64,000 bases of DNA from a bacterium (GCA_021801565.1 JAJYXV010000003.1:132894-196893), one strand, 5' to 3'; positions 9,446-55,232 are shown, counted from the stretch's first letter. Notes: generated by a model not told the origin, from the sequence alone. Translations and numbers: made by a program.

Positions 9446-9529
9446 GTGTGCTGTCGGAAATAAAATTTTGATCCTATTGTACAATAAAAATGGGAATGGA
9501 GAATTGTGTAATTTATATATAACTAGAAT

Positions 9530-37176: not shown

Positions 37177-37218
37177 ATATCCTCACTTCATCCACATATG
37201 TGGATGAAGTGAGGATAT
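37177..37218. repeat. 42-bp perfect palindrome ATATCCTCACTTCATCCACAT|ATGTGGATGAAGTGAGGATAT
   Basis: Reverse complement checked by hand. The two 21-nt arms match exactly with no spacer. Confidence 0.9.
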
Positions 37219-37289
37219 GGTGATTTTGTTATAAAATATATCTTTTTATTGAAAAATATTGAATTTGTTGGTACGATATTTTTGCCATT

Positions 37290-37331
37290 GCCGGATCGCC
37301 TGCTTGCGCAGGCAGGTCTAATGGTAGGACA
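37290..37331 (+). other. tRNA-Gln 5' segment duplicate (nt 1-9 and 10-25 of the downstream tRNA, split by a 17-nt GC palindrome)
   Basis: gccggatcg matches tgcgggatcg with 1 mismatch. gtctaatggtaggaca (37316-37331) is identical to tRNA nt 10-25 (37603-37618). The insert cctgcttgcgcaggcag is palindromic. Confidence 0.6.
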
Positions 37332-37336
37332 TAAGT

Positions 37337-37585
37337 ATGTGGAATGTGTACATTTTGAAAAGTGAGGGTCGTAATTGGTTTTATGTTGGGAGCACCAATG
37401 ATCTAACGCGTTGCATCAAAGAACACGAAAACGGAAAGGTACAATCGACAAAAAGTTATCGTCCACTCACCTTAGTTTTTACCAAAGAATTTGACGAGGA
37501 ACGAGATGCAGGGGCATATGAGCGTAAATTAAAAAAATGTAGAATTGAGAAAGAGAGCATAATTAAGAAATTTAATTTATGCTAA
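37337..37585 (+). CDS. small GIY-YIG nuclease family protein (COG2827-like), copy 2
   Basis: WNVYILKSEGRNWFYVGSTNDLTRCIKEHENG carries the GIY-YIG motifs. It ends 7 nt before tRNA-Gln. Confidence 0.72.
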   Translation: MWNVYILKSEGRNWFYVGSTNDLTRCIKEHENGKVQSTKSYRPLTLVFTKEFDEERDAGAYERKLKKCRIEKESIIKKFNLC

Positions 37586-37592
37586 ATGATAT

Positions 37593-37663
37593 TGCGGGAT
37601 CGTCTAATGGTAGGACAGCGGACTCTGAATCCGTCAATCTTGGTTCGAATCCAGGTCCCGCAG
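37593..37663 (+). tRNA. tRNA-Gln (anticodon CTG)
   Basis: The acceptor stem is tgcggga/tcccgca, the D-arm gtct-aatggta-ggac, and the T-arm cttgg-ttcgaat-ccagg. The anticodon loop ctCTGaa has stem gcgga/tccgt. Confidence 0.8.
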
Positions 37664-37765
37664 CACGAGTCAGCACGGTATCGAGGCAAGACCACCTTGC
37701 CTCAGCAACGACCGACTTTCTCCGTCCTTGAAAATGTCATACCGGCTGAGTGCCGTATTCAAGAC

Positions 37766-37798
37766 AAAAGGCCGCCGATACATCGGCGGCCTTTTGTC
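37766..37798 (+). terminator. strong rho-independent terminator aaaggccgccgat-a-catcggcggccttt followed by a T-run
   Basis: A 13-bp GC-rich stem followed by TTTTGTCTG. Confidence 0.7.
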
Positions 37799-37864
37799 TG
37801 TGCAGCTTAGGCTTGACTCCAAAACCATATTCATATATTCTTTTAATGCAGAAGATTTGAATAC

Positions 37865-38230
37865 TTGAATATGGCAAAGGCACACATTATAACAAAAGAT
37901 GGCACGAAAGTAACAATCGAAGGTACCCCTCAGGAGGTGGCTTCTTTAGTCACGCAATTAAAGGGAGGGATACCGCAGACTTCTGTCATATCAAAAACAA
38001 CTAAAAAACACAAAGGACAGGCAAAAGCTACCCCAGTAAACCTAATATCCGAATTTATTGATGGAGGTTTTTTTAAGAAACCTAAAGAGCTTGGCGCTAT
38101 AAAAATTGCGCTCGAGGAGCAGGGACACTACTATCCAGTTACCTCGCTATCCCCGGCGTTGTTGCGACTCGTTCGTAAACGACAACTACGACGAATCAAA
38201 GATAAGAAACGTTGGTTATATGTTAATTAA
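37865..38230 (+). CDS. island paralogous-family protein 1 (shared ~60-aa GFF...GY..S.L..AL.R module)
   Basis: LISEFIDGGFFKKPKELGAIKIALEEQGHYYPVTSLSPALLRLVRKRQLRR aligns with the corresponding segment in the next three genes. Confidence 0.45.
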   Translation: MNMAKAHIITKDGTKVTIEGTPQEVASLVTQLKGGIPQTSVISKTTKKHKGQAKATPVNLISEFIDGGFFKKPKELGAIKIALEEQGHYYPVTSLSPALLRLVRKRQLRRIKDKKRWLYVN

Positions 38231-38235
38231 AATAT

Positions 38236-38562
38236 ATGTCTAAAGAAGAAAAAACAATTAAGGATTTACTAACTCGAGTTAAGAAACTCGAAAAGACTGT
38301 TTTTGCCGAGAATAAGGCAAAACCAAAGCTTGATAATAAGCAAATCTTTGTAGGAGCAACAGGTGGATTAAGGCTTTTAATATCTAAAGGATTTTTTGAT
38401 AAAAAAAGAAGTTTCGGGGAAATAAAAAAAGCACTCGCAGACCGGGATTATCACTATAGTAATCAGGCGATACAAACACCCCTTAATAAACTCTCAAGGA
38501 TTGGAGGGCTATTAGTGGGCTTAAAAGAGAGTGGTAAGAAAGCTTATGCAAAAAGAAAATAA
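38236..38562 (+). CDS. island paralogous-family protein 2
   Basis: LLISKGFFDKKRSFGEIKKALADRDYHYSNQAIQTPLNKLSRIG is present. Confidence 0.45.
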   Translation: MSKEEKTIKDLLTRVKKLEKTVFAENKAKPKLDNKQIFVGATGGLRLLISKGFFDKKRSFGEIKKALADRDYHYSNQAIQTPLNKLSRIGGLLVGLKESGKKAYAKRK

Positions 38563-38794
38563 TAAAATTGCAAAGAGTGCCCCGGATAGTCTAAAACTTC
38601 TTTGGTTAAAAGGTTTTTTTAAGTCGTGGAAAAATTATGGCCAAATTGTCAAAAATTTATCCGGTCAAGGATATAACTTTTCAATGCCAGAATTAGGCAT
38701 GGCGTTAAAACGTGCAAAGCATCTTACTAGGAGAGGTAAAAGAACCGGCTATGAGTATATTCAAAAGTATCCCTTTACCTCAGATGAAAAATAA
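38546..38794 (+). CDS. island paralogous-family protein 3
   Basis: LLWLKGFFKSWKNYGQIVKNLSGQGYNFSMPELGMALKRAKHLTRRG is present. The start is chosen at the ATG overlapping the upstream stop. Confidence 0.45.
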   Translation: MQKENNKIAKSAPDSLKLLWLKGFFKSWKNYGQIVKNLSGQGYNFSMPELGMALKRAKHLTRRGKRTGYEYIQKYPFTSDEK

Positions 38795-39473
38795 GAACTC
38801 AATTTCACTACCAGAATTATTGAAAGTCCTTTGGCAGGAAGGATTCTTTTCAGATGAAAAAGAGCTTTCAGAGATATCTGGAGGTTTTGCTGCAAAAGGT
38901 TATCATTTTAAATCTTCAAGTCTCAGTGTGGCCCTTATACGCGCAGTCAAATCAAGTGGGTTTTTGAATAGGATAAAAGAGTCTGGTAAATGGAAATATA
39001 TTCAGAAACATCCAATAACATCGCCATCTGGGCAACGCATTGCTTTGTTCGAAAGATACGACTTGCATCCCAAAGTAAAAGAGGTTGCCTTCAAACAGTT
39101 TGAAGATGGGTATTTTAAAGAAGCAATTCAGAATGCGCTTGTCGAAGTTATTGAGCAAGTAAAAATCAAAGCAAAAAGACCTAAAAATGCAAATGGACAT
39201 GATCTCGATGGAGATGACCTAATGAACCAGGTTTTTGGTTGCGATAATCAACATCCTAAAATTAAATTTAATAATTTAAAAACAAGTCTTGATAAAGCAG
39301 AACAAAGAGGGCTAATGAATTTATTCAAGGGAATCGTCGGAATTAGAGACAAAAAAGCCCATCTTAATTTTATACAAAAAGATCATCTTAAAACTATTGA
39401 ATATTTATCTCTCGCTAGTTTATTAATGCGGCTTTTAGATGAATTTGCCTTAACTCGCAGGAAAGATAAATAA
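38784..39473 (+). CDS. island paralogous-family protein 4 with a C-terminal TIGR02391/Hypoth_Ymh (Abi_C-like) domain
   Basis: The N-terminus carries LLKVLWQEGFFSDEKELSEISGGFAAKGYHFKSSSLSVALIRAV. The C-terminus carries FEDGYFKEAIQNALVEVIE...GHDLDGDDLMNQVFG...IKFNNLKTSLDKAEQRGLMNLFKGIVGIRDKKAHL...YLSLASLLMRLLDE. I recognise this from memory as the TIGR02391/Abi_C pattern. It has not been verified. Confidence 0.5.
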   Translation: MKNKNSISLPELLKVLWQEGFFSDEKELSEISGGFAAKGYHFKSSSLSVALIRAVKSSGFLNRIKESGKWKYIQKHPITSPSGQRIALFERYDLHPKVKEVAFKQFEDGYFKEAIQNALVEVIEQVKIKAKRPKNANGHDLDGDDLMNQVFGCDNQHPKIKFNNLKTSLDKAEQRGLMNLFKGIVGIRDKKAHLNFIQKDHLKTIEYLSLASLLMRLLDEFALTRRKDK

Positions 39474-39474
39474 T

Positions 39475-40215
39475 ATGGATTTTTCGAAAAATATAAGAGC
39501 ATTTTTAAGCAGTTTGCCGATAAAAGATTTGAGTGGCCACCAAATTTTTTTGGCAATAGCGACTTATTGTGCGAGCGGTGACACTTCTGATCAAGTTAAC
39601 ATTGCTGATGTACGCGATAGATGGCCAATGTCCTTATTAAGGAAAAAATATAATACAAATTTTTATACCCGAGCCCAAACGGAAGGATGGGTTGATCCAG
39701 TTGGGCAAGGGATTTTTATTATAAAAGATGAAGGATTACAACATCTCGAAGATTTAGTTGGATCTATCAATAAGAACATTGCTTCTTTAAACAATACTGG
39801 CCTTTTTATTTTTGATAAAAAAGATACCCACTCTTTTGATAAATTTTTGCGCACTATTTTTGCAAATGCCAAATCCAGAGTGCTTATAGCAGATTCTTGG
39901 GTTGATGAAACAATTTTTGACAATGTACTTGATAGTATTCCTAAAACACTTGATATCAACTTAATTTATGGCCAAAAGAAAGGAATATTTGATAGTCGTA
40001 TAGTCCGCTTTAAAAAACAATATTCAAAGTTTGTTGTTAAAAGATATAAAGATCTTCATGATAGATTTTTAATCGTTGATAATATGGGTTGCGTCATAGG
40101 CCCATCTTTAAAAAATGCTGCCGAGAAAAGTCCCGCCTTGATAGTTGTTCTGGACAAAAAGGATTCTTTGCTATTAATTAAATTTTTCCAAGTGTTATGG
40201 AAAAAGGCAAAGTAG
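39475..40215 (+). CDS. hypothetical protein with a degenerate PLD/HKD-like motif (HDRFLIVDNMGCVIGPSLKN)
   Basis: 246 aa, translationally coupled to the previous gene (TAATATG). A single HxR-x4-D-x6-G-x-S-x2-N motif lies near the C-terminus. The assignment is weak. Confidence 0.35.
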   Translation: MDFSKNIRAFLSSLPIKDLSGHQIFLAIATYCASGDTSDQVNIADVRDRWPMSLLRKKYNTNFYTRAQTEGWVDPVGQGIFIIKDEGLQHLEDLVGSINKNIASLNNTGLFIFDKKDTHSFDKFLRTIFANAKSRVLIADSWVDETIFDNVLDSIPKTLDINLIYGQKKGIFDSRIVRFKKQYSKFVVKRYKDLHDRFLIVDNMGCVIGPSLKNAAEKSPALIVVLDKKDSLLLIKFFQVLWKKAK

Positions 40216-40243
40216 ATTTTATTAAATAATTTTATTCACATCT

Positions 40244-41605
40244 TTAGCTGACCAATAATATCTCTTTCTCTTTTAGTAGAATTTTGTTTTTTATACAGTT
40301 CAGTAATTCACGCTTTTCTTCAATAGTTCCATGGCTTAAGACGTGATTTGAATACCGCTTTGCATCAAAGTCTTTTTCTAGTGATCCATCATTGTGGATA
40401 TTTAGAAATGATTTTTGGAATTTTGTCATTCGCTTATACTCTTCATCAAATTTCTTTTTGATGACGCCCTCATTCATCTCCAGCTCCCCAATAACTGCGA
40501 CCAATTGCTTGATTACTTCCTCTTCTCGGATATACCCTTCCTTACATTGAAGGTTTCGTGATCGATTGCAACCATAGTAGACATAGTGAGCCACATCGCC
40601 GTTGGCGAGTTTTTTATATTTATCTTCAGCGGTTACGCCTGATCCGCATCGCCCACAAGTCATTATTCGTGAAAATACGAATTGTTTATCTGTGTATTTA
40701 ATTTCCGATCGCTTTAATTTTTCTCGCGCTTTCTCAAACACTTCTCTTGTGATAAGAGGTGTATGTTGTCCCTTATACCAATTTCCACTACCCATCGGAT
40801 ATTCAAACGTTCCATAGAAAAAGGGTGTTTGCAGTAAGCGATAGATGTTACTCAGCGTGAGTGGTTTATTACTCGTTGCACTCCGAAAATTCATATCAAA
40901 TTTCAGCCAGTGATATATTTTTCTTCCGCTCCATCCTTCAAATGCAACTTTCTCAAACATCTGTTTTATAACTGGCGCTCGTTCGGGATCAACCATCACA
41001 TATCCTTTCCGATCAATTCGTTTTTCATTTAAATATCCTGTTGGAGCGGGTGCGGGCCATAATCCCATTTCACAGCGCATTCGCAATCCTCGTTTTACAT
41101 TTACGCTCTTGTTATCATTTTCCAGTTTTGCCTGTGAGCACAAAATCATTAGAAGAAACTTCTCATTCGGAGAATTTGTGAAATGCTGGCCGTATGTTTT
41201 TATCTCGAGCAGCAACTTCTGATCCATAAGATCAACAAGTGATCCCAAATCTCCAGCGTTTCTTGATAATCTATCCGGCGCCCATGTGAGTATCCCTGTA
41301 TATCGTCCGCTTCGAATATCTTTAACGATTTCGTTAAAAACTGGACGCTCGCCAGAATCTTTCGCCGAATGTGATTCTCTCCGAATATCCACAATCTCCA
41401 GTCCATCACGTTCGGCAAGCTGAAGCATCTCTTTAATCTGTGAATCAATAGAGAGAACTTGCCGCTCTTCACTCTCTGTCGATTTCCGAGCATAGAGACA
41501 GTATCTAACCTTTACTGGAAGCTCTGTGGATCTTTGAGCCTGAGCTCCTACCGACCCCACTGATTGTTGTGATGTATTCATACAACACAAGGGAGCCGGA
41601 ACCAT
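40244..41605 (-). CDS. large serine recombinase (phiC31-type integrase family)
   Basis: The N-terminal resolvase catalytic domain (YCLYARKSTESEERQVLSIDSQ ... RLSRNAGD) is followed by a recombinase domain and a zinc ribbon (CGRCGS...YYGCN). 453 aa. Confidence 0.85.
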   Translation of the reverse strand: MVPAPLCCMNTSQQSVGSVGAQAQRSTELPVKVRYCLYARKSTESEERQVLSIDSQIKEMLQLAERDGLEIVDIRRESHSAKDSGERPVFNEIVKDIRSGRYTGILTWAPDRLSRNAGDLGSLVDLMDQKLLLEIKTYGQHFTNSPNEKFLLMILCSQAKLENDNKSVNVKRGLRMRCEMGLWPAPAPTGYLNEKRIDRKGYVMVDPERAPVIKQMFEKVAFEGWSGRKIYHWLKFDMNFRSATSNKPLTLSNIYRLLQTPFFYGTFEYPMGSGNWYKGQHTPLITREVFEKAREKLKRSEIKYTDKQFVFSRIMTCGRCGSGVTAEDKYKKLANGDVAHYVYYGCNRSRNLQCKEGYIREEEVIKQLVAVIGELEMNEGVIKKKFDEEYKRMTKFQKSFLNIHNDGSLEKDFDAKRYSNHVLSHGTIEEKRELLNCIKNKILLKEKEILLVS

Positions 41606-41786
41606 TCAAACAAGTCCAGATGTATGAAGTGGATAACTTACTTTACTTCTTTCCTGAAATACGCGAGGAATACAAAATATGGAAATAAAGGTCGAAATGC
41701 GCTAAAATTTATTAACAATTGAATAGCCTTAATATACATAAGGCAGGATCTAAACCATCGGAGTAATTCGGTAGCATGATCTAAAA

Positions 41787-41830
41787 ACGTTTCACAGTAT
41801 TAAGCTCCTCGTCAGAGCACTGTGAAACGT
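41787..41830. promoter_or_regulatory. 12-bp perfect inverted repeat ACGTTTCACAGT-N20-ACTGTGAAACGT in the divergent promoter region between the recombinase and protease genes
   Basis: Arms at 41787-41798 and 41819-41830, reverse complement checked. Confidence 0.5.
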
Positions 41831-41847
41831 CATACAGGGAAACTTGT

Positions 41848-42915
41848 ATGGGTGGAGAAATCCATCGCTGGCGGGGAGCTTTATGTTTTCCGCCAGAACA
41901 GAATCACGATGCGAATATGAATTTAAAGAGTATAAAGATAAACTCAAAAATTTTTATAGCAGGTGGAATAATTGTTCTTATATTACTTGGCATATTGGGC
42001 ACATTTGTTGTGATTGATAAATTTAGAAGTTATCAAAGAGAACAATCAGAAAAAAATGCGCAAGCAACAGAAAATCTTGCTTTGCAACAAAAAACGCTTG
42101 ATGAAGCAAGACAGGAAATCGAGAAACTCAAATCAGAAAATAAAAATATTGACCAAAAAATAGAGCAGAAATCAAATGAATTAAGCCGAGTAGTTGCCAA
42201 AGCAGTGCAGAATAATTCACAGCAGGGATCAGTGGAATCTACGATCCAGGCAAGTGAGATAAATCAGTACCTATCTGGCGTTGGAGAAATTATATGTTAT
42301 GGCGATGTACAGAAAAGTGGGAGCGCTTCGCTTTGGAAGTTTGGTAATGATGGCTATGTTTTAACGAACTACCATGTAATATCAGGTCCAGGAAATTGCA
42401 ATCTAACTATTGATGGTAATGGCGTGTATAAACTTGATAAAACGAGTGTCCGATCATGGAATTCCGCGACCGATGTTGCGGTGGTGAAAATAGCTCCCTT
42501 TGGAGAAATGGCAGATATTTCATCTCCAATATCAGAGTTGAATTACAGCATTTCATATTTAAAGGAGTGTCCGGCAAAAATGCCACTTGGTTCTCCAGTT
42601 ATAGCTATAGGATTTCCGGCATATTCCAGAACCACAACCATGATTAATGGAGTGGCGAGCAGCCACTCTCAACGGACAATTACAAATGGCATTATCAGTG
42701 CGTACGATGATTCGGTTCAAATGCCAATAGGTAGTTTACCTAACGTAAATTATTTTGTTTCAGCAAAAATAGATAGTGGTAACTCCGGAGGTATTACTTT
42801 TTCTAAAAATGAAAACGGTCTTTGTCTTTTGGGCATCCCAACATGGTTATCACTTGGAAAATTTGAAGCAGGAGGTCTCATACAGAATATTTTTAATGTT
42901 TTATACGAGAAATGA
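41848..42915 (+). CDS. membrane-anchored trypsin-like (S1 family) serine protease with a coiled-coil linker
   Basis: A TM helix and a coiled coil are followed by the catalytic His (LTNYHVISG), Asp (DVAVVKIA) and Ser (GNSGGITF). The likely true start is MNLKSIK (41917). Confidence 0.6.
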   Translation: MGGEIHRWRGALCFPPEQNHDANMNLKSIKINSKIFIAGGIIVLILLGILGTFVVIDKFRSYQREQSEKNAQATENLALQQKTLDEARQEIEKLKSENKNIDQKIEQKSNELSRVVAKAVQNNSQQGSVESTIQASEINQYLSGVGEIICYGDVQKSGSASLWKFGNDGYVLTNYHVISGPGNCNLTIDGNGVYKLDKTSVRSWNSATDVAVVKIAPFGEMADISSPISELNYSISYLKECPAKMPLGSPVIAIGFPAYSRTTTMINGVASSHSQRTITNGIISAYDDSVQMPIGSLPNVNYFVSAKIDSGNSGGITFSKNENGLCLLGIPTWLSLGKFEAGGLIQNIFNVLYEK

Positions 42916-43229
42916 AAAATACTCAAGACTACAAAACTATAGCGGGCGCATGGAAGATTGCTCAAGAATTTGCCGATGCAGAAGCAAAAAATGCAGAATC
43001 TTTTTATTCACTCAATAATACCTTGCCATACAAAAAAGATATTATCGCGTTAGCACTATTAAATCTCCTCACCTCGAATGATTTTAGAAATGAGCTGTTG
43101 TGCAAAGGAGAAGGGGGCGAAAAAATTCTGCAAACAATATCAAGTCTTATGTTCAGCTTAGCTACTGCATATTTTCCAGACGAAACGGAGTATCGAGAAC
43201 TAATCGAGACAAAAAAATTAATGGACTAA
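42912..43229 (+). CDS. hypothetical protein
   Basis: 105-aa ORF. Confidence 0.3.
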   Translation: MKNTQDYKTIAGAWKIAQEFADAEAKNAESFYSLNNTLPYKKDIIALALLNLLTSNDFRNELLCKGEGGEKILQTISSLMFSLATAYFPDETEYRELIETKKLMD

Positions 43230-44308
43230 GATCTTTTCCTACTTGATGACTCAAGCATTTTTCTAACGGCGGCACCCAAAAGATCTTCGTTTACAATGGG
43301 AACATCAATACAATATCCAGCCATGAAGGGCGAAGTCGGTTCTAATCTTTTGCAGGGACATGGTATTTTTTCTTTTGCGGGAAATTGAGCTATCAATTCT
43401 TTATCACACTCCCTAAGATTGTATCGGAAGGTACCCATATGTAATAGATACTCTTGTCGCCAGACATAATCATCAAGTTTTTCCTGTAGAGTTTTAATAC
43501 TTTCCGGAGTTGAAAATTTTTCTGGCCATAAAATCTTTTCGTGTTTATCGAGCAGAGGGTATGCTCTGAAGGCTCCCTTTAATCTTCCTTTTTCTATATT
43601 TTCTTTTATGTTCATCATAAAAGAATTGGCATGAACAAGATTTCCAACGATCATAATTTTTGTGTTTTCATCGCCGATAGGTAAAATTTCAGATTGGAAC
43701 CATTGATATGTCTCATCTCTTTCGCGTAGGCTAATAGATTTCGCATCTTCAATATCATCAATGATAATTAAATCGGGGCGATGTTGGCCATGTTTAATCC
43801 CTCTAATGCTTTGTCCACTTGAAATAGCAATAATACGAGCTCCCACCAAAGGAAGTTCAATACTCAATGCTCCCCATTCACTTTTATTGTCGATCTTGAA
43901 AGGACCAAGGTCGCCTCGTAATAATTTATTATTTTCCAGTTCATGACATATGTGAGAAAGAAGCGTTTTCACCTGTTGTTGGCTTTTGCTTATCATTACC
44001 ACGCATTTCTTTTGCTGTATTCCTAAGATTGCCCATAACACATAAGAAAGGCTTATAATGGTTGATTTACCTCCGCCTCTGAAGGCCATAATCGCAATAA
44101 CGTTATAGACAGTATCTTCAGTCAATAAAAACATCTCCTTTTGGAATGGAGCAAACTTATAACCAAAATGGTGGTTCAAAAATATGAGAGAAAACCACAC
44201 ATGACTCCTAAAAACGAGATGCCGGCGAACCGCTTTGTCGGTAATGATCTTATCTCTCATTTTTTCAATTTCTGTTTGATTCGAGTTTTTTGAATAGGTT
44301 GAATTCAT
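43226..44308 (-). CDS. phage terminase large subunit-like protein (ATPase domain; short)
   Basis: Walker A (AFRGGGKST) and Walker B (PDLIIIDDIEDA) in terminase-like spacing. It is translationally coupled to the upstream small-subunit-like gene. Confidence 0.6.
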   Translation of the reverse strand: MNSTYSKNSNQTEIEKMRDKIITDKAVRRHLVFRSHVWFSLIFLNHHFGYKFAPFQKEMFLLTEDTVYNVIAIMAFRGGGKSTIISLSYVLWAILGIQQKKCVVMISKSQQQVKTLLSHICHELENNKLLRGDLGPFKIDNKSEWGALSIELPLVGARIIAISSGQSIRGIKHGQHRPDLIIIDDIEDAKSISLRERDETYQWFQSEILPIGDENTKIMIVGNLVHANSFMMNIKENIEKGRLKGAFRAYPLLDKHEKILWPEKFSTPESIKTLQEKLDDYVWRQEYLLHMGTFRYNLRECDKELIAQFPAKEKIPCPCKRLEPTSPFMAGYCIDVPIVNEDLLGAAVRKMLESSSRKRS

Positions 44309-44706
44309 TTTGGAGAAAATAATTGAATTGCCCTTTCCACAGTCTCCCTTTGCTCTTGGACAAGTTCTTCTTCGACGATGGGTTTTGTGGCAATCTCAAC
44401 TCGTAATGCATATTTCGGATGGTGATGGCGAAGCCATAAGTGGATCGCTGAAAAGTTTTTATCTTTAATCATTGAGATGAGTTGTGCTTCGCTTAGATCA
44501 TTTATCGATTCTTCACCCTCTTCGATCGCTTTATCTATGGCAGAAGCAAATTCTTTATCCTCGATTTTCCATCGATAAAAACTAGCCCTGCTTATTCCTG
44601 CCTTAAGGCATGCAACTTGAATAATCGGAAATTTCTTCAACTGTTCAAGCAAACTTTCTTTTTCTTTTTGTTGACGTTCTTTAATTGTATCGTTATCGTT
44701 TTCCAT
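44305..44706 (-). CDS. phage terminase small subunit-like protein (HTH)
   Basis: The HTH VACLKAGISRASFYRWKIEDKEF is present. The gene sits directly upstream of the TerL-like gene. Confidence 0.5.
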   Translation of the reverse strand: MENDNDTIKERQQKEKESLLEQLKKFPIIQVACLKAGISRASFYRWKIEDKEFASAIDKAIEEGEESINDLSEAQLISMIKDKNFSAIHLWLRHHHPKYALRVEIATKPIVEEELVQEQRETVERAIQLFSPK

Positions 44707-45006
44707 ACTATTTTTATTATTACTTTTTACTCTTCGCCTTGATTGTCACCTTTATAAAAATAAAAAAGGCGTGCCAAAAGAGCTCCGCCTTTTTCTATGA
44801 TTGAAATTGTAATGTTGTAGTCAAAAGACTACACTGCCATTCTACATCTTTTCATAAAAATTTAACATGGTAGAATTGTGAATAACTTTTATATTAATAT
44901 AAATAAGACATTATAGTGTCTCATTTGAATATGGCTTTTCTATGTCTCAATTGTCTCATTTACGAAAAAGCTCCGTCAGACCAGCGGAGCTTTTTATTGC
45001 TATATT

Positions 45007-45246
45007 CTAGCCCTTATATTTTTCTGGATCTTCGCCGTAAGTGTATTCTCTCTCGATTACATTTTTCTTATTATGGATCTTAATCTGACCAAGATTGCAA
45101 TTTTCAAGAATATCTCTTGCGGCCTGGATTGCGTCAAGTTTATTCTGCACTACGACGGCAGCGCGTTGCGTTCCCTCGCGCTTAGCTGCCCATTCAATTC
45201 CATTTTCGGTAAATCGGGGCGTAATGTGGTAAACTACTCTTTTCAT
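45007..45246 (-). CDS. hypothetical protein
   Basis: 79-aa ORF. Confidence 0.3.
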   Translation of the reverse strand: MKRVVYHITPRFTENGIEWAAKREGTQRAAVVVQNKLDAIQAARDILENCNLGQIKIHNKKNVIEREYTYGEDPEKYKG

Positions 45247-45812
45247 GTGCTATACTGTTATTGCATGTAACACGACCTTTGGTCGTAAACGAAAAACCGG
45301 AGCCGTTATCATCGGTTCCGGTTTTTCTAATATTAGTTGTGTATTTGAAGAATCGGAGGAAGGTTAGGTCTTGGTCGCAAAAATTGTGCTTTGAGGTAAC
45401 CTCCGATGATAGGGTCTGACTAGTTCTGACTTTTCAATTTACTCTTACATTATAGCGCATTTTTCGAAAATTTTCAATCTTTGATCCGACATAAGCCAAG
45501 ACCTAGAGGGGTCAGAAAAATGCTAGAACGCAACGCAAAAAAGCCTTATACTGATTGAAGAGTTGTGGCACTAGACCACACAACACAGCATATGCAAAGC
45601 CGCTTGCCTTTTTAGGTGAGCGGCTTTGCATTATATTGTTGGTCTGGATTCGAACGGGAAAAGGGTTGGGAAAACGGAAGTTTTCCTGTGGTGGAGGTAC
45701 TGGAACCGCAAGGTGTCAGAAAATTTTGAGAATACAAAATTTTGTTTGATTGCCAGGTCCCGCAGCACTTCGGCAAGCTCAGTGCAAGCACATCTGAGAG
45801 GTATAATAAAAA

Positions 45813-46102
45813 CATGTGGTATATATGCATGCTTTTTTGTGATCAGAAGACTTTTTACGTCGGGATAACTGATGATCCGAAAAAGAGATTAGTAGAACAT
45901 CGAAGGGGGTGCTCATTTTATACAAAAAAGTTTTCTGATCTAGAGTTCATATTATTGTGAACAATATTCGAGTAAGCATGAAGCTGCCTTGCGGGAAAGA
46001 CAAATCAAGGGATGGGCGAGAGCAAAGAAGCAGATGTTATTAGATGGTAAGCTTGGGTATAATATTTGTACTGAGATTGTCGAAGCTCTTCGGAATGGAT
46101 GA
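45813..46102 (+). pseudogene. GIY-YIG nuclease family gene (COG2827-like), copy 3, frameshifted
   Basis: The N-terminal part MWYICMLFCDQKTFYVGITDDPKKRLVEHRRG is in frame 0 and stops at 45960. The C-terminal part HEAALRERQIKGWARAKKQMLLDGKLGYN continues in frame 2 to the TGA at 46100. Confidence 0.55.
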
Positions 46103-46138
46103 CTTGCCCTGAGTATACCGAAGGGAATCCCTGTCCGG

Positions 46139-46178
46139 CAGCACGAGTCGGTGCAGTATCGAGTGAGAATGGAGAGCG
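46139..46178 (+). repeat. 40-bp direct repeat copy A (CAGCACGAGTCGGTGCAGTATCGAGTGAGAATGGAGAGCG)
   Basis: Identical to 47101-47140. It is related (21/26) to the sequence immediately 3' of tRNA-Gln (37661-37686). Confidence 0.85.
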
Positions 46179-46275
46179 TCATTGTAAGCGACTCTCGTCT
46201 CGTGGTTCAAGGCAACCAAGACCCATACCCTTTTCCTAGAAATCGAACTAAAATTAAAAATTATATTTAGGAATT

Positions 46276-47058
46276 ATGAATTTAGCCGTTTTATTTTGGT
46301 TTTATAAAGAGCCAGAAGTTTGCGAAAACAGATTACAGCTTATTAAGAAATATAATTCTAATCTAAAAATTTATGGACTTTTTGGTGGCGAGCTCTCGGA
46401 TACTGAAATATATAAAGAAAAACTAGGAAGATATTTGGATGATTTTTATGTGTTTGATTCAAATAAAAATGTTGACTGGAAATGGATTAATGGTGATTTG
46501 ATGATTTTGGATTGGTATAACGAAAAGGGCAGAAATTTAAACTGGGATAGTATTGTCGTCGTCCAATGGGATATGCTTATTTTTGACTCTTTATTAGATC
46601 AATTTTCTGGAATAAATAAGAACCAAATTTATCTGTCTGGATTAAGGAACTTGGATAAAGAAATTGAAAACGAATGGGATTGGACGAAACCGGGTGAAAA
46701 AGAAAGGCAAAATTATCTAAATTTTCTGAAGTATGTAAAAAAGAATTACGGATATGCAGACGATCCACCTCTTTGCAGCTTGTTTATTCTTCAGGTTTTT
46801 CCAAAAATATTTTTTGAAAAATATCTGACGGTAAAAAATAAGGAAATTGGCATGCTTGAATATAAAATTCCAATTTATGCCAAAATATTCAGAATTCCAT
46901 TTTATAAAAAAGATTTGGGTACCCGATGGAACGATGATCCAAAACCTCTAAATGCAATACCGGAAGAAATTTCGAGTGACTACATTAAAGAGGAACTTAT
47001 CAAAAAAGACGGTTGGAGAATTTTCCATCCTTATTATAAAATTTGGCTAAATTTCTAA
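46276..47058 (+). CDS. hypothetical protein (Trp/Tyr/Lys-rich), single-gene cassette between 40-bp direct repeats
   Basis: 260-aa ORF. No motif recognised. Confidence 0.4.
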   Translation: MNLAVLFWFYKEPEVCENRLQLIKKYNSNLKIYGLFGGELSDTEIYKEKLGRYLDDFYVFDSNKNVDWKWINGDLMILDWYNEKGRNLNWDSIVVVQWDMLIFDSLLDQFSGINKNQIYLSGLRNLDKEIENEWDWTKPGEKERQNYLNFLKYVKKNYGYADDPPLCSLFILQVFPKIFFEKYLTVKNKEIGMLEYKIPIYAKIFRIPFYKKDLGTRWNDDPKPLNAIPEEISSDYIKEELIKKDGWRIFHPYYKIWLNF

Positions 47059-47100
47059 GCGGGGTTTGAACCTACCACGGGTTTTAACTCGAGAGTCGGC

Positions 47101-47140
47101 CAGCACGAGTCGGTGCAGTATCGAGTGAGAATGGAGAGCG
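47101..47140 (+). repeat. 40-bp direct repeat copy B
   Basis: Identical to 46139-46178. Confidence 0.85.
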
Positions 47141-47243
47141 AAGTTTTGAGCCAGGGCTCTCTTATTATCAGCTCTAAACGTTTGAGATCTATAACCTTTC
47201 TTGGATAAACAAAAACCACTCAAGTGATAAGTACTTAAGTGGT

Positions 47244-47825
47244 TTATATGGTTTTCTTCGTATATTTCTTCATCAGGAAAAGCATGAAAGAAATAATGAA
47301 GATAGTACGTACAGAGTAAATCATCGCAAGAACATTGCCGTGCTGGTAGGCAGGATAGAATGCAATTGCTCCGGCTAAGAGGAATAGAGTCCAATTAGTG
47401 AACGACTCGTGATTCTCTTTCGTGTGAATTAATTTATGCAGTGTCGGAAAATATCCGACTAGAATAAGTGTTTGCACCAAAAGATTCGTCGCAAATGCAT
47501 TCTTTGAAAATACCCAGAAGCAGACGATAATACCAGCCACGATTAAATAAATCCGTTCGAATCTTTCTAATTTGATGGTGCTTCTCTTAAGTAATGAACC
47601 CAGAATGATAACACACATCAGAAAATCCCCGAGACTGTAAGCGTTGCTTACAAATTCCCACGAGGTAACTGAAAAGACCGAAAGAACGTTTAATAGGGTA
47701 GCACACACGAATACAATCCACGTGCCAATCGCCGGGGCAGTCGTGCTTGCGAGAATATCTCTTACGTATCGATATCCGGCATAAAAATATATGATGGACA
47801 ATAGTATGAGAGATAAACCTTCCAC
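47244..47825 (-). CDS. hypothetical polytopic membrane protein
   Basis: 193 aa with 5-6 TM helices. Confidence 0.4.
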   Translation of the reverse strand: MEGLSLILLSIIYFYAGYRYVRDILASTTAPAIGTWIVFVCATLLNVLSVFSVTSWEFVSNAYSLGDFLMCVIILGSLLKRSTIKLERFERIYLIVAGIIVCFWVFSKNAFATNLLVQTLILVGYFPTLHKLIHTKENHESFTNWTLFLLAGAIAFYPAYQHGNVLAMIYSVRTIFIISFMLFLMKKYTKKTI

Positions 47826-47954
47826 TGCGTCATCTCCTTATGTAGTTTGTAAAATTTTGAACTGTTTATAGTATAGCACTATTATATCAAATTTGTCAAG
47901 TTTCATTCTTGAGATATTAGTTTGTGATACAATAATATCAACTTTATTTTATAT

Positions 47955-48389
47955 ATGGATCTAGAAGTAAACATACAAGATACGATTTTGAATATCAGAG
48001 TTGCAATTTTGATTAAAACGAAAAATGGTTTTGTGCTCGAAAAAAGTCCGAACGGATATTTTTATTTTATTGGGGGAAGAATAAGAATAAATGAAACCTC
48101 AGAAGAAACCGCGAAAAGAGAAATTCTTGAAGAGATGAGCATTAAAATTGAAAAATTAACATTTAAAACCATCATCGAAAACTTTTTTATATCAAAAGAG
48201 AATCAGTCTATTCATGAAATCTGCTTTGTTTACATAGCCGATGATGAATTAGAAATACATGATTTAATGCCAGGTCACGTAGAATGTCCGAGTGCCGATT
48301 TTAGAAACATGGATATTAGGCCAAAAGTTATAAAAGATTATATTTTGAATAACGACAATAGATCACATGTCATTTTTAAGGATTTTTGA
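47955..48389 (+). CDS. NUDIX hydrolase
   Basis: The Nudix box GGRIRINETSEETAKREILEEMSI is present. Confidence 0.6.
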   Translation: MDLEVNIQDTILNIRVAILIKTKNGFVLEKSPNGYFYFIGGRIRINETSEETAKREILEEMSIKIEKLTFKTIIENFFISKENQSIHEICFVYIADDELEIHDLMPGHVECPSADFRNMDIRPKVIKDYILNNDNRSHVIFKDF

Positions 48390-48470
48390 TGGCTCTTGTC
48401 GCATTGTTTTGGTGCGTTTAATATATCACTCGAATATTTTGGTCTATTTTCTCTCTGGCCTCTAAAAATT

Positions 48471-49136
48471 ATGAAAAAAATAAAAGATCTAGATGAAAAT
48501 TTTATAGGTTGGATTAAAACTCAATTAGGCAAAAATCTTGTTATAAGGAAAGAAAAATATGGAGATCAAAGCGAGGTTTATTGTATTAATACACCTCGCG
48601 GCAGTTATTTTTTGAAAATTGCCGAAAATCTTGAAACTGAGTGTAAAAAACTAAAATGGTTAAACGGAAGACTTCCCATTCCTGAGGTAATCAAATTTGA
48701 ACACATTGGGGATAAAGACGTTTTGTTACTCTCGGCAGTTGAAGGAAAAAATCTTGCGGAACTTAAAAAAGAATGGCCGGCGGAAAAGGTTGTAAGTATA
48801 CTTGCTAAAGTTTTATTTCAATTTCACACTATTTCGACAAAAGATTGTCCTTTTGGAAGTCAAGGAAAGGGAAAAGTATTAGTGCATGGAGATGCATGCC
48901 TTCCTAATTTTATATTCAAAGACGATGTGTTTTCTGGCTATATAGATTTGGGAGACATGCGGATAGATACCCCTCATATAGATCTTTCTGCTGCGGTGTG
49001 GAGTTTGCAATATAACCTCGGTTCCGGATTTGGTTTAAATTTTTTAGAAAAATATGGAGTAAAAAACGCCACAGAGGAATTGGTGGAGAAATTAAGATTA
49101 CAATATGAAGAAACGCAAAAAGAGTGGGGATTATGA
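48471..49136 (+). CDS. aminoglycoside-phosphotransferase (APH)-family kinase-like protein
   Basis: The Brenner motif VHGDACLPNFIF and IDLGDMRIDTPHIDLSAAVWSL are present. The layout resembles APH(3'). Confidence 0.6.
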   Translation: MKKIKDLDENFIGWIKTQLGKNLVIRKEKYGDQSEVYCINTPRGSYFLKIAENLETECKKLKWLNGRLPIPEVIKFEHIGDKDVLLLSAVEGKNLAELKKEWPAEKVVSILAKVLFQFHTISTKDCPFGSQGKGKVLVHGDACLPNFIFKDDVFSGYIDLGDMRIDTPHIDLSAAVWSLQYNLGSGFGLNFLEKYGVKNATEELVEKLRLQYEETQKEWGL

Positions 49137-49212
49137 AAACGCGCGTTATTCATATTGATTGGCTTGTTTTTCGTTTTTCCCTTATAATTTCTATATTGTA
49201 ATTATTATATTT

Positions 49213-49659
49213 ATGACAACAATTTTAATCGGTGTTTTAGGTGCGGTAATTAGTGCTATGACGGGAACTCTTTGGTATTCTGGTTTGACCCCGATGGGGA
49301 AATGGCATATGCAGTATCTCGGATTTGATAAATTGTCGGAAGAAGAAAAGAAAAAAATAATTGCGAAAGCGAAGCCAAAAATGTGGAAGAGTTACTTGGC
49401 GCAAATAATTCTTTCTTTTTTAACATCATTCTTTATCGCCTTTGTGGCAAGCTATACTGTCAAAAATGGGGGACAAGCCAGTGCGGTTTTTTATTATGTC
49501 ATCATGATCTGGGTCGCTTTTACAATGCCAATGATTGGACAAAATATTCTCTGGGGTAAATCCGAAGGCGGTCTTGCATGGAAAAGATTTTTCTCAGATA
49601 GTTTTTACAATTTGATTACCTTTCTCATTATCGCAGTTGTGGCGATCTTAATAATTTAA
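49213..49659 (+). CDS. hypothetical membrane protein
   Basis: 3-4 TM helices. The ORF may start at 49159. Confidence 0.35.
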   Translation: MTTILIGVLGAVISAMTGTLWYSGLTPMGKWHMQYLGFDKLSEEEKKKIIAKAKPKMWKSYLAQIILSFLTSFFIAFVASYTVKNGGQASAVFYYVIMIWVAFTMPMIGQNILWGKSEGGLAWKRFFSDSFYNLITFLIIAVVAILII

Positions 49660-49712
49660 ATTCAAAAATATGCTCATATGGAGCTTTTTAATTTTCATAT
49701 ATTTTAATTTTC

Positions 49713-50012
49713 ATGAAAATTAAGCTTAAGCGGGATAAGTTCAAAAAGACTCGCGGCGGTTCTTCGCGACTATTAGCGGTAAAGTGCGAGAAATGCGACG
49801 AACTACTTTGTTATTATCAAAAAGACGGATCGGGATTGCTCAAGCGCATGTATATCGACCGAATCGCAAAAATATATACGGATATCGATAAAAAGTTGGC
49901 GTGCCATAAATGCGGTCACATCCTTGGCATGCGTTATATTTATGAAAAAGAAAAACGCCCGGCATTTAAGCTCTTCAAGGGATCTGTAAAAAAGAAAATA
50001 GTCAAAACCTGA
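49713..50012 (+). CDS. zinc-ribbon protein (CxxC...CxxC)
   Basis: CEKCDE...CHKCGH are present. Confidence 0.35.
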   Translation: MKIKLKRDKFKKTRGGSSRLLAVKCEKCDELLCYYQKDGSGLLKRMYIDRIAKIYTDIDKKLACHKCGHILGMRYIYEKEKRPAFKLFKGSVKKKIVKT

Positions 50013-50037
50013 TTCAAATTTAAATATAATTTAATTT

Positions 50038-51645
50038 ATGAAACGGATTTATAGGGGGATTGTTGTATATGGTGCCCCGGGAACCGGCAAGACCACATTG
50101 GCGAAATCTATTGTCTATAATTTTTCCAATGCAAAGTATGTTGAGGCATCAAGTTTGGTTGTTTATCCCGCCTCAACACTTCAGAAGCTTCCTGTAAAAG
50201 AAAACGGATTTATCCAGGTAATTTGGAAAATTTATAAAAAACCGATTAATAAATATTTTTCCCGAGAAAATGCACGGGATTTTTTCACGTATCTTAAGAA
50301 TAAATATTCTTCTTCGGTGATTGCGAAAACAATCATTTATTTACACAAAAGAGATTTCTCAAAGAAATTTCTTATCGTGGCGGGGATACGCGGATATCGA
50401 AATTCTCTCTACTTTAAGAAAAATGGATATTTCGTTCTTTATCTGAAGGCACCAAATAAACAAATCACAAAGAGATTGGCGAAACGAGAAAATTTTTCTC
50501 GAAAATTTGCAGAAAAAGAACGAGAAATCGAAGAACGACTTTTTTCCACAAATAAGGTAGAAAAAATTGCGCATCTCTCGTTCAATACTGCTGTTACTAC
50601 AGAGAGGGAAATTATTTCACAATTGAAGGCACTTGTGGAGATACAAGAATGCAAACAATGCATAAATTCAAGCGCTAATTTATCATATTCCATCGGAAAG
50701 CTTGGTTTGTGCGAGGTGTGTGAAAAATATAAATTCTATTTTAGTAAAAAATCTCTTGAACAAGAATTAAAACTTTTCCTGTCCTTAAAAAAGAGTGGAA
50801 AAGGAAAATATGATGCAATGGTGGGTATCTCTGGTGGAAAAGACAGCACAGCGATGCTCTACGAGGTGAAAAAAATGGGTTTTACTCCTCTCGCGTTTTC
50901 ATTGGATTCTGGATACTATCCGAGGCACATATCAAAAAGAGCGAGGCAAGTTGCCAAACAATTGGGTGTTGATTATGAAAAAATTGATGCGAGAAAATAT
51001 ATTCGTCCTGCTGATCGCGCAAGTTTTCAAAACACAGCTGATTTATATAACGAACGCGAATCTCCCGAATTGAAAGAAAAGTTTCGAAAATGGTACACAG
51101 AAGGACGAAGACATTATTCCATAAAGTGTGAACATCGCATTCCTTTCATCCGGACGTGTCAGTTGTGCAGGCGTGTGATTATCCGGTCGTATTATGGAGA
51201 AGCGTTACGGCATGGTGTGCGAGTGGTGGTTCTTGGAATTAACGAGTGGGCGGGACTTAGCCAAAATAGTGAATCTAAAAAATTTGTTTTTTCTGCAATA
51301 AGAAAATTACAACCATTTAAGAATAAACCCGCGGTGCATGTGGTGCATCTTCCATTCCTTCTTCAGAGAAAAATCGGAGATACAAAAAAGATTTTGAAAA
51401 AACTTGGGTGGAAAATTCCTCGAGGAGAAGATCTGGTGGAATCAAATTCTAATTCCTGTCTTTTTGCCCGTGCTGCGGAAAGCAAGGCGCGGAGAATGCT
51501 CGGATTTCATCCCGATGCAACCCGTCTCGCAAGAGAGGTAACAGTTGGATTTATCACAAAAAACCAAGCGCGCAAGGCATTGGAAAAAACGCATAATTAT
51601 AAGTATTCTGTGAAAGAAGTTTTGAAAAAAGCAAAAGTAATTTAA
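50038..51645 (+). CDS. fusion protein: N-terminal P-loop NTPase/kinase-like domain + Cys pairs + PP-loop (SGGKDS) ATP pyrophosphatase domain (TtcA/TtuA-like)
   Basis: VVYGAPGTGKTTLAKS is the Walker A. CKQC...CEVCEKY are the Cys pairs. GISGGKDSTAML is the PP-loop. C-terminal CEHRIPFIRTCQLCRR is also present. Confidence 0.6.
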   Translation: MKRIYRGIVVYGAPGTGKTTLAKSIVYNFSNAKYVEASSLVVYPASTLQKLPVKENGFIQVIWKIYKKPINKYFSRENARDFFTYLKNKYSSSVIAKTIIYLHKRDFSKKFLIVAGIRGYRNSLYFKKNGYFVLYLKAPNKQITKRLAKRENFSRKFAEKEREIEERLFSTNKVEKIAHLSFNTAVTTEREIISQLKALVEIQECKQCINSSANLSYSIGKLGLCEVCEKYKFYFSKKSLEQELKLFLSLKKSGKGKYDAMVGISGGKDSTAMLYEVKKMGFTPLAFSLDSGYYPRHISKRARQVAKQLGVDYEKIDARKYIRPADRASFQNTADLYNERESPELKEKFRKWYTEGRRHYSIKCEHRIPFIRTCQLCRRVIIRSYYGEALRHGVRVVVLGINEWAGLSQNSESKKFVFSAIRKLQPFKNKPAVHVVHLPFLLQRKIGDTKKILKKLGWKIPRGEDLVESNSNSCLFARAAESKARRMLGFHPDATRLAREVTVGFITKNQARKALEKTHNYKYSVKEVLKKAKVI

Positions 51646-51793
51646 ATTTTGTGGGGTGTGATAGGATATGTATATGTATAAAGAAGTTACTGCAGAATAT
51701 TGGCGTAAATATTTAGGATTACCGGAAAACTACCAGGTTGGGTGGCAGTTTCCGAATTGCTGGATTTACAATAAATTATTTATCTAAAAATTT

Positions 51794-52297
51794 ATGCATT
51801 TTTACGCTTTTGCGATTGTAAATATAGATGAGTCCATGAGAAAAAGAATTCCTGAAATCATGGAAGAAAGGGATAGGGAGACGAAGAGAATGGATAACGA
51901 ATTTGAAAAAATGACCTTTGATGAAATTTTGGATTCTCACGAAAAGAGAAAACCAAATGGATATGAGAAGTTATTATATGCACTGAAACAAAAAGTAAAA
52001 AAACCACTTGATAAATATTGCGCATATGGAAACACTGAAGACGAGAATAGAAAATTTGATAGTTGGGTATTGATGGATGTTTTTACTCCCAGCCGTCTTA
52101 TGAATGACACTGAAATGCTCAACGATCTCTTTCCTCAAGCAATAATGAATTCAGATTGCAGTTGGATTGAAAGTGAATGGAGTGAGAATGACGAGGAAAA
52201 CGAAAGACTGACATTAAAATGGGACAAGTTCGTGAAAAAAACTCTTGAGGAGAACAGGGAAAAAAGCGTTGTCTTGTTAATTCATTGCGATTCTTAG
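51794..52297 (+). CDS. hypothetical acidic protein
   Basis: 167-aa ORF. Confidence 0.3.
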   Translation: MHFYAFAIVNIDESMRKRIPEIMEERDRETKRMDNEFEKMTFDEILDSHEKRKPNGYEKLLYALKQKVKKPLDKYCAYGNTEDENRKFDSWVLMDVFTPSRLMNDTEMLNDLFPQAIMNSDCSWIESEWSENDEENERLTLKWDKFVKKTLEENREKSVVLLIHCDS

Positions 52298-52324
52298 GGG
52301 AAGATTATAATACTAGAAAATTTT

Positions 52325-53182: not shown

Positions 53183-53245
53183 TAGAATATATGCCGAATA
53201 TGCGGTAGTTGATGTTTAGGTCGAATATAAAATATAATTTAATTT

Positions 53246-53809: not shown

Positions 53810-53875
53810 AAAACTACCTGATGTAATACAAAAACCCCGATGTGAAATCGGGTTTTTTTGTTATTTCATATTTTT

Positions 53876-55231: not shown

Positions 55232-55232
55232 A

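Follow-up and report, generated by a model that had tools for sequence, protein, structure and literature searches.

What kind of element occupies the 3′ end of a tRNA-Gln gene in a member of the Patescibacteria, and how did it arrive there? The question is raised by a window of 64,000 nt of one strand (positions below refer to it unless another contig is named), the host of which was assigned to this group of ultra-small bacteria via the names of homologs. Directly after the tRNA-Gln lies an island that carries a large serine recombinase (LSR) and genes for proteins resembling the small and large terminase subunits of phages (TerS and TerL). Comparison with island-free strains delimits the insertion to window positions 37666-45590, and these 7,925 bp probably represent a site-specific integrative element of a family that is widespread in Patescibacteria.

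The tRNA-Gln(CTG) gene at the left end (37593-37664, plus strand), already recognized in an earlier note on this DNA, is genuine (ARAGORN; Rfam tRNA, 61.8 bits) and is the integration target, its last bases supplying the B arm and the core of the site. The same note had bounded the island (37651-45768) by a 16-mer, CCAGGTCCCGCAGCAC. As claimed, the 16-mer forms an exact pair, with copies at 37651 and 45753 only; a third copy was absent from the window even at up to two mismatches, and 0 of 100 shuffles gave two copies. The likeness between the two places reaches 31 nt at 77%. The boundary was nevertheless found to lie elsewhere. Island-free alleles were present in two sister-strain contigs, L105 (GCA_027423605.1) and L107 (ENA ERZ27237541), whose flanks share 99.2-99.5% identity with those of the window. 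These were reached by look-up of a 260-aa protein encoded downstream of the island; exact-protein look-ups with the LSR, the GIY-YIG gene upstream of the tRNA, and the protease of the island returned occupied alleles only, and the window itself corresponds to contig DAIBZE010000003.1 of the metagenome-assembled genome GCA_027423585.1. L105 5617-6039 corresponds to window 37243-37665 and L105 6035-17507 to window 45586-57062, and the two alignments overlap by five bases, CAGCA. The empty site thus reads ...CCAGGTCCCG-CAGCA-TATGCAAAGCCGC..., the tRNA being followed directly by a terminator hairpin. The distal 16-mer is retained in island-free L105 (6203-6218), 165 nt downstream of the tRNA, and hence is not an att duplication of the element. 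The right limit given by the empty allele lies 178 bp inside the limit of the earlier note, and the repeat is 5 bp long, not 16. Both ends were agreed independently: the 95% nucleotide identity to a copy of the element backbone in contig L020 ends at window 45589, and contig L004, which matches the window at 100% identity between 41725 and 37661, departs from it at 37660/37661. The proposal of the earlier note, a discrete island with LSR, TerS-like, and TerL-like genes at the 3′ end of tRNA-Gln, is upheld, and the island is mobile; the empty tRNA-Gln site that the note had suggested seeking in related genomes exists, and its caveat that the 16-mer might be a chance repeat does not touch an element that is real by its empty and occupied alleles.

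The 16-mer also bears on the mode of insertion. A classical tRNA island spanning 37651-45768, inserted by a since-lost tyrosine integrase with the LSR as a passenger, would explain why the 16-mer occurs only twice in the window and why it grows into a 31-nt tRNA-like stretch, which is typical of tyrosine-integrase att sites. It is refuted for this insertion by the retained distal copy in both L105 and L107 and by the endpoints at 37665/45586. Furthermore, no tyrosine recombinase was found in the element by Pfam, PHROGs, or recurrent-family searches, and related LSRs lie beside tRNA 3′ ends in 50 of 80 genomes. This explanation is hence scarcely tenable for the present island, but it could still describe an older event behind the 16-mer scar.

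The two alleles also define the sites of the recombination. The reconstructed attP reads ...ACTAGACCACACAACA-CAGCA-CGAGTCAGCACGGTATCGAGG... and the attB ...CCAGGTCCCG-CAGCA-TATGCAAAGCC... (in junction form, GGCACTAGACCACACAACA-CAGCA-CGAGTCAGCACGGTATCGAGG and GAATCCAGGTCCCG-CAGCA-TATGCAAAGCCGCTTGCC, respectively). The two are identical in the 5-bp CAGCA core only, and comparison of empty with occupied alleles revealed no long direct repeat at the element ends. An attB/attP identity of 5 bp is expected from serine integrases, whereas the repeats left at tRNA genes by tyrosine integrases are typically tens of bases long. Of the 11 open reading frames (ORFs) of the element, one alone encodes a recombinase, the LSR (Pfam, PHROGs, and PADLOC). 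As the 5-bp identity fits a serine integrase and the LSR is the sole recombinase present, it presumably catalyzed the integration event, and its action at the CAGCA core in the tRNA-Gln end is considered very probable. In the proposed mechanism, the LSR would join the attP of the element to the last bases of tRNA-Gln (attB), with the crossover falling within the shared CAGCA, the crossover dinucleotide most likely being the CA at the left edge of the core. Such a crossover places the element between the tRNA and its terminator and leaves the tRNA intact.

An arm of conserved sequence, (C)AGTCAGC.CG.TATCGAGG...GAGAGC, borders the tRNA-Gln end in different species. The P′-arm motif also adjoins tRNA-Gln in L024, L027, L028, L030, L066, L194, and L196 and in about 30 JGI contigs. 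It is near-identical in L194 and L196 (a Brennerbacteria metagenome-assembled genome), the LSRs of which are 88-89% identical to that of the window and which share its layout: a leftward RNA motif named LOOT, a rightward LSR, defense cargo, and a leftward tRNA-Gln.

Several observations weigh against the assignment to the LSR. A dyad scan of attP and attB was weak at the core, and by eye only a loose CTAGAC...GTCAG symmetry was noticed in attP. No excised circle or attP junction of the window element was seen, reads being outside the search, and no recombination directionality factor was identified. In addition, L004 and the arrays of att-like sites described below need site pairings foreign to canonical serine integrases. 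Presence and absence of the island could instead result from homologous or illegitimate recombination between short repeats, since many CAGCA(C)-containing repeats surround the locus and the search, which did not extend to reads, showed no circle. However, 5 bp is too short for RecA-dependent exchange, and the endpoints match both the end of the L020 homology (45589) and the arms conserved beside tRNA-Gln elsewhere, so that we regard this route as very improbable and retain integration by the LSR.

Table 1. Features of the integrative element and its surroundings (window positions).
Feature	Position	Strand	Evidence or remark
attL core CAGCA	37661-37665		Left limit of occupied/empty identity
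P′ arm: CGAGTCAGCACGGTATCGAGG and hairpin GAGGCAAG/CTTGCCTC	37666-37703	+	Putative LSR binding half-site
Perfect 18-nt inverted repeat, terminator-like, just inside left end	37762-37799		Repeat search
Three small paralogous proteins (121, 108, 87 aa); cargo	37865-38794	+	Winged-helix-like by eye
253-aa protein, N-terminal paralog domain and C-terminal Hypoth_Ymh (Abi_C/HEPN-like); defense-type cargo	38712-39473	+	PF09509 5.9e-22; PADLOC PD-Lambda-3_B 4.7e-9, Aga_HEPN 2e-7
246-aa protein; defense-type cargo	39475-40215	+	PADLOC PDC-S05 (candidate defense family) 6.7e-18, NsnC 1.5e-6; no Pfam match
Large serine recombinase, 453 aa	40244-41605	-	Resolvase, Recombinase, and Zn_ribbon_recom: PF00239 1.7e-18 (residues 37-181), PF07508 4e-12, PF13408 3.5e-8; phrog_95 integrase 2e-64
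LOOT RNA (RF03000)	41747-41866	+	Rfam 88.2 bits against gathering score 46.4; model positions 1-121
Membrane-anchored coiled-coil trypsin-like protease, 355-aa ORF; cargo	41848-42915	+	PF13365 Trypsin_2 5.1e-12
105-aa ORF	42912-43229	+	Mostly within the 95% block common to L020; no match in Pfam, PHROGs, PADLOC
Short TerL, 360 aa	43226-44308	-	Terminase ATPase domain and low-confidence tail; phrog_38 2.9e-37
TerS-like helix-turn-helix protein, 133 aa	44305-44706	-	PF13022 6.6e-7; PHROG terminase small subunit families
DUF2188 protein, 79 aa, head of leftward operon	45007-45246	-	PF09954 6e-11; PADLOC PDC-S16 3.1e-13
Best sigma-70-like promoter match, TTGAAA-17-TATAAT, into DUF2188-TerS-TerL	45449-45477	-	Consensus match only
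P arm with ACTAGACC 8 nt from core	45536-45585	+	L020 homology ends at 45589
attR core CAGCA, right limit of insertion	45586-45590		L105 alignment
B′ arm, intrinsic terminator directly after tRNA-Gln in empty strain	45592-45631	+	Terminator scan; L105 sequence
Second copy of 16-mer, older tRNA-Gln 3′-end-like scar with CAGCA core	45753-45768	+	Outside element; also in L105 6203-6218
Scar copy B: 3′ fragment of a variant tRNA-Gln, CAGCA, and P′-arm-like sequence	46125-46189	+	Repeats, alignment, P′ arms of other species
Scar copy C: CAGCA and P′-arm-like sequence	47087-47151	+	Repeats, alignment

The combination of an LSR with a tRNA 3′ end, noted earlier as unusual, is real and moreover general for this LSR family. 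At least 8000 homologs of the LSR were obtained at E≤1e-60; the best 120 are 67-100% identical to it, and all of these that bear an organism name are Patescibacteria. A set of 80 loci with related LSRs was assembled with one genome per species, nearly all titled Patescibacteria or unclassified bacteria (about nine bear other labels, namely, Gammaproteobacteria, Oscillospiraceae, and two archaea). A tRNA gene lies downstream of the LSR in 50 of the 80 loci, and the first such tRNA is convergent, with its 3′ end toward the LSR, in 50 out of 50 (28 Gln, 18 Ser, and 4 others). In similar amounts of DNA, 86 tRNAs were counted downstream of the LSRs against 6 upstream. The nearest LSR relative has the same target tRNA in 39 of the 50 loci, as compared with an expected 21.5 and a maximum of 35 in 2000 shuffles; LSR relatedness predicts the target tRNA. 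Direct repeats of the tRNA end were tried as a general boundary marker and rejected, as long far-side repeats were present in a few loci only (L055, L063, and L080). In two loci beside tRNA-Ser, L076 (9899-12635) and L079 (9974-12710), two LSR genes of the family lie tail to tail with an overlap of about 20 nt.

Gene clustering over 84 loci yielded a common gene order. A LexA-type S24 repressor on the opposite strand (12 loci) is followed by a 136-aa ORF, a (ParB-)N6/N4 DNA methylase (48 of 84 loci), TerS (43 of 84), which precedes TerL (37 loci, mostly 480-530 aa with a nuclease domain), then 0-13 variable genes, mostly on the opposite strand and with recurrent families sized like type I restriction-modification subunits, and finally the LSR. 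About half of the related loci show the order methylase-TerS-TerL-variable cargo-LSR, the cargo consisting mostly of restriction-modification, CBASS-like, and OLD-like genes. No structural phage family (capsid, portal, or tail) recurs within 10 kb in the 84 loci.

In the window element, the domain searches upheld the genes named in the earlier note, i.e., the LSR, the TerS-like and TerL-like genes, the protease, and the block of paralogs with Abi_C, as well as its statement that capsid and portal are lacking; neither capsid, portal, nor tail genes were found in the element with Pfam and PHROGs. The backbone is composed of DUF2188-TerS-TerL (ATPase only), the LOOT RNA, and the LSR, in the translation of which the catalytic-domain motif YARKSTE with the nucleophilic serine could be read. 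The cargo occupies two variable slots. The tRNA-side slot holds defense-type genes (HEPN/Abi_C-like and PDC-S05-like) together with three small proteins that have no Pfam match. The latter are related to each other (pairwise BLASTP E 1e-5 to 1e-8) and to the N-terminus of the 253-aa protein (up to 1e-14), forming a set of four, the last of which is fused to Hypoth_Ymh. The second slot, between TerL and LOOT, holds the membrane protease, whose real start may be the ATG at 41914, and the 105-aa ORF; L020 carries other genes at the protease position. No ORF of the element matched a replication module (primase/helicase, or Rep with origin) in Pfam, PHROGs, or PADLOC, nor was such a module present among the families that recur in the relatives.

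The TerL of the element is shorter than most of its homologs. Its match to phrog_38 covers profile positions 258-518 of 760. The Walker motifs GGGKST and LIIIDD are present in the translation, and K81, D184, and D185 are invariant in the homolog alignment. Full-size homologs (about 500 aa, including the nuclease domain PF17289) cover about 76% of the window TerL and in tblastn align to about residue 291 only, while a subgroup of 347-370 aa covers 87-98% of it. No nuclease remnant (PF17289, RNase H-like) was found downstream in any frame. The AlphaFold (AF2) model showed a predicted local distance difference test score (pLDDT) of >90 for most of residues 10-290 and <50 for residues 294-340, and Foldseek matched it to the ATPase domains of the T4 gp17, P74-26, D6E, and HK97 terminases. 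A C-terminal motif, Y(C/R)IS(A/V)P, is common to the short forms even where their identity falls to 41-46%, indicating selection rather than random truncation. The window TerL is a conserved ATPase-only form that lacks the nuclease domain. In the other short-TerL loci examined (L014, L018, L019, and L020), TerS is followed by the short TerL, 0-3 genes, and the LSR in 4 of 4. A TerL of 401 aa in L196 (7768-8973) is intermediate between the full-length forms of about 500 aa and the 360-aa form, and its length hints at a stepwise loss of the nuclease domain.

The LOOT RNA lies 141 nt from the start of the LSR gene, in divergent orientation, and is followed by a conserved hairpin, CTGGCGG/CCGCCAG, at 41868-41896. 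It was found at the same relative place in L014 (11868-11988), L019 (7379-7495), L020 (11906-12025), L194, and L196 (9715-9829). With a model of seven copies (R1), LOOT was detected in 40 of 85 sources, in nearly all cases between TerL and LSR and in the orientation opposite to the latter; these counts are approximate, as the RNAalifold structure missed the long LOOT hairpin, although the Rfam hits were still recovered. Since cargo occurs on either side of it, LOOT is better described as a backbone module than as the leader of one gene. No published function of LOOT was found in searchable text: Rfam lists it as an sRNA gene only, and the main text of the 2017 paper does not discuss it. The present locus gives this RNA a genomic home in a mobile element, so that it can be tested as part of one.

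A small palindrome, GCCTTAATATACATAAGGC, is situated between the LSR and LOOT at 41726-41744; it differs from L020 by a 1-nt indel, and several public assemblies break there. A separate 4-kb LSR unit (37661-41725) had been suspected, as contigs in three assemblies stop at 41725 and those in others begin at 41739 or 41746. It was rejected because the break falls on this 1-nt indel, which distinguishes co-occurring, near-identical copies of the window and L020 types; the break most likely stems from the assembly graph and does not mark a recombination site.

The element has moved between hosts in the recent past. In L020, which stems from the sample that also yielded the empty-site contig L107, the DUF2188-TerS-TerL-ORF block is 95% identical to that of the window in nucleotide sequence (the DUF2188 protein is 99% identical), and LOOT differs at one base. 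The host genes on the L020 contig are only 64-68% identical to those of the window. Moreover, the L020 LSR shares 73% nucleotide and 63% protein identity with the window LSR, and its site is a different one, beside truB. A 95% backbone among host genes of 64-68% identity, accompanied by another LSR and another site, points to recent transfer between hosts and to exchange of the recombinase module. In L020, the terminal ~55 nt of the element (P arm) are also present twice in direct orientation, at 6665-6720 and 8717-8772, 2 kb apart and beside truB. The two copies bracket three ORFs of 289, 210, and 100 aa, the last of which has 71% nucleotide identity to window 49734-50014, outside the island.

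What does such an element live on? With a little less than an even chance in our estimate, it is a phage satellite relying on helper-phage capsids that serves the host as a defense island at the same time. Its own TerS and TerL ATPase would direct its packaging into helper capsids. The reading is based on the presence of TerS and TerL, the orphan methylase and LexA-like switch of the relatives, the small size, the defense cargo, and the spread between hosts. Among the features of phage-inducible chromosomal islands (PICI), the element has an integrase, attL/attR, a size of 7,925 bp (within ~5-15 kb), and packaging genes (TerS-like and TerL ATPase); it is not a PICI as defined, since the replication module was looked for and not found. 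That absence also counts against the satellite reading, as do the following points. The window TerL has no nuclease with which to cut DNA during packaging; the window element has neither the methylase nor the LexA-like repressor of many relatives; and no helper phage was identified. A viral-contig scan with the single TerL gave no matches, and in a scan of IMG/VR with a TerL alignment the best matches were again such islands and no helper phage.

The earlier note had also considered a decayed prophage. In that case the island would be the remnant of a tailed phage that has shed its structural, lysis, and replication genes, with the terminase genes as relics. The TerL cut down to its ATPase domain, the lack of capsid, portal, and replication genes, and the missing methylase and repressor would all agree with decay. 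However, the element, from which the tailed-prophage genes (portal, major capsid, and tail) are absent, is not itself a prophage, and its minimal gene order is shared by about 40 species, without any structural family being conserved in the surrounding 10 kb. The short TerLs of 347-370 aa keep their C-terminal motif over the range of identity given above, strains of a single species differ exactly by the element, and it is 95% identical in a distant host. Decay of a prophage is therefore improbable, and a phage satellite is preferred to it.

A further explanation assigns the terminase genes to defense: the nuclease-less TerL ATPase and its TerS-like partner would disable or divert the packaging motor of an invading phage, and the island would spread otherwise, e.g., by natural transformation followed by LSR integration. 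The conservation of the ATPase-only TerL, neighboring genes that match candidate defense families, the dominance of restriction-modification, CBASS-like, and OLD-like genes in the cargo of relatives, and the missing replication module are in agreement with it. Most family members, however, have a full-length TerL with the nuclease domain (PF17289), and nearly half carry the orphan ParB-methylase, which fits DNA travelling through virions. This explanation as a whole is unlikely; an interference role of the terminase proteins is nonetheless a serious alternative, and one that is compatible with a satellite. To our knowledge, a terminase ATPase without nuclease in a capsid-less, replication-less element fits no known satellite family, and it points either to a novel form of hijacking or to interference with phage packaging by a novel route.

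The tRNA-Gln end appears to have been used repeatedly. In both empty and occupied strains, a series of att-like sites with a CAGCA core lies downstream of the tRNA (Table 1). Copies B and C bracket the 260-aa ORF (46276-47058), the homolog of which is the first cassette after tRNA-Gln in the JGI contig L246. There, short gene sets are divided from one another by four direct P′-arm copies (3340-10726), and a piece of an LSR remains. The gene sets of the JGI arrays (L246 and also L239, L244, and L199) include the homolog of the 260-aa ORF, membrane proteins, a kinase-like gene, and a TerS-like gene. The scan of JGI metagenomes for the arm gave about 30 genuine copies, each after a tRNA-Gln end or after other arms ending in CAGCAC; among the 52 hits to the P′-arm pattern, about 20 in unrelated contexts, without the surrounding motif, look like chance. 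A recurrent JGI junction, ACCAGACC-N8-CAGCACG-AGTCAGCG, has the architecture of the window attP, ACTAGACC-N8-CAGCACG-AGTCAGCA, and the contiguous form ACYAGACC-N8-CAGCACG-AGTCAGC was found in the arrays L199, L239, L244, and L246. In L004 (4066-4443; sample ERZ27236928), the window element adjoins a cassette end of this type in place of the tRNA: its left 4 kb runs at CAGCA into another flank, which contains a 57-aa ORF and an arm similar to what precedes window copy C. Canonical attP × attB recombination does not account for this junction. By analogy with the composite SCC islands of staphylococci, the series of sites is read as accretion at one hotspot.

Two GIY-YIG genes are found around these sites, one of 82 aa directly upstream of tRNA-Gln (37337-37585) and a frameshifted one (45814-46101) between the 16-mer scar and copy B; the pair looks like a partly duplicated unit of GIY-YIG and tRNA-Gln end. 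Further upstream, between a 236-aa gene and the GIY-YIG gene, a perfect 42-nt palindrome (37177-37218) is replaced in other strains of the same species by a segment of about 400 nt with a 77-aa ORF (L009 1269-1668; L105 5217-5616). This swap is a second, unrelated presence/absence polymorphism.

Taken jointly, the locus may belong to a large, undescribed class of serine-recombinase elements in Patescibacteria that uses tRNA-Gln and tRNA-Ser 3′ ends as platforms for SCC/integron-like arrays and for a new kind of satellite, a possibility that we advance with considerable reserve. Whole elements and recombinase-less cassettes would pile up at one tRNA end, split by attP-like junctions. The backbone (methylase-TerS-TerL, LOOT, and LSR) would define a capsid-less and replication-less phage satellite, LOOT would be a dedicated regulatory or packaging RNA, and the ATPase-only TerL would be a derived variant acting with or against the terminase of the helper. 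No description of this element family was found in the literature searched. The parts themselves are of known kinds, namely, a serine integrase, terminase subunits, and a listed Rfam motif. New as a combination are the systematic use of tRNA 3′ ends by LSRs, a capsid-less and replication-less backbone with TerS and TerL, the ATPase-only TerL, LOOT as a backbone RNA, and cassette arrays at a tRNA. For a serine integrase that targets a tRNA gene end, the locus defines attB and attP to the base, and the LSR family, given its size, may interest those who mine LSRs for genome engineering. It also points to a main vehicle for defense genes and for recent gene flow in the Patescibacteria, which are largely uncultured and whose mobile elements and phages are little described.

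Among known systems, the serine integrases of phiC31, Bxb1, A118, and SPbeta share with the window element the three-domain LSR, a short attB/attP core (here 5 bp), and a conserved chromosomal target. The characterized serine integrases known to us target protein-coding genes or intergenic sites rather than tRNA genes, and tRNA ends are usually the domain of tyrosine integrases. Unlike the phiC31-type systems, the present family uses tRNA-Gln and tRNA-Ser 3′ ends, the element comprises 7.9 kb without virion genes, and the LSR is often parted from the att arm by cargo. Phage satellites (PICI, cf-PICI, PICMI, P4-like elements, and PLE; marine VEIMEs; tycheposons) are likewise small integrated elements with an integrase, a small terminase, and defense cargo and without a full virion module. 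The window element differs from them in that no primase/replicase module was detected, TerL stands beside TerS, capsid genes are absent, and the recombinase is an LSR, not a tyrosine recombinase. Among these satellites, the PICI-like tycheposons also occupy tRNA sites, and an LSR is present in a minority of tycheposons (10.1101/2020.12.28.424599). Integrons resemble the arrays of L239, L244, and L246, in which one anchor, the tRNA-Gln end, is followed by short gene cassettes split by copies of the site; here, however, the recombinase is a serine and not a tyrosine enzyme, and the sites are double-stranded and att-like instead of folded attC. The staphylococcal cassette chromosomes (SCC; SCCmec and pseudo-SCC, with Ccr) are also LSR-driven cassettes at the 3′ end of one housekeeping gene with accessory or defense cargo, and they too form tandem or composite arrays with recombinase-less remnants at a single site. 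The target is rlmH in SCC and a tRNA here, where the backbone of TerS, TerL, and LOOT and the Patescibacteria hosts further set the present family apart.

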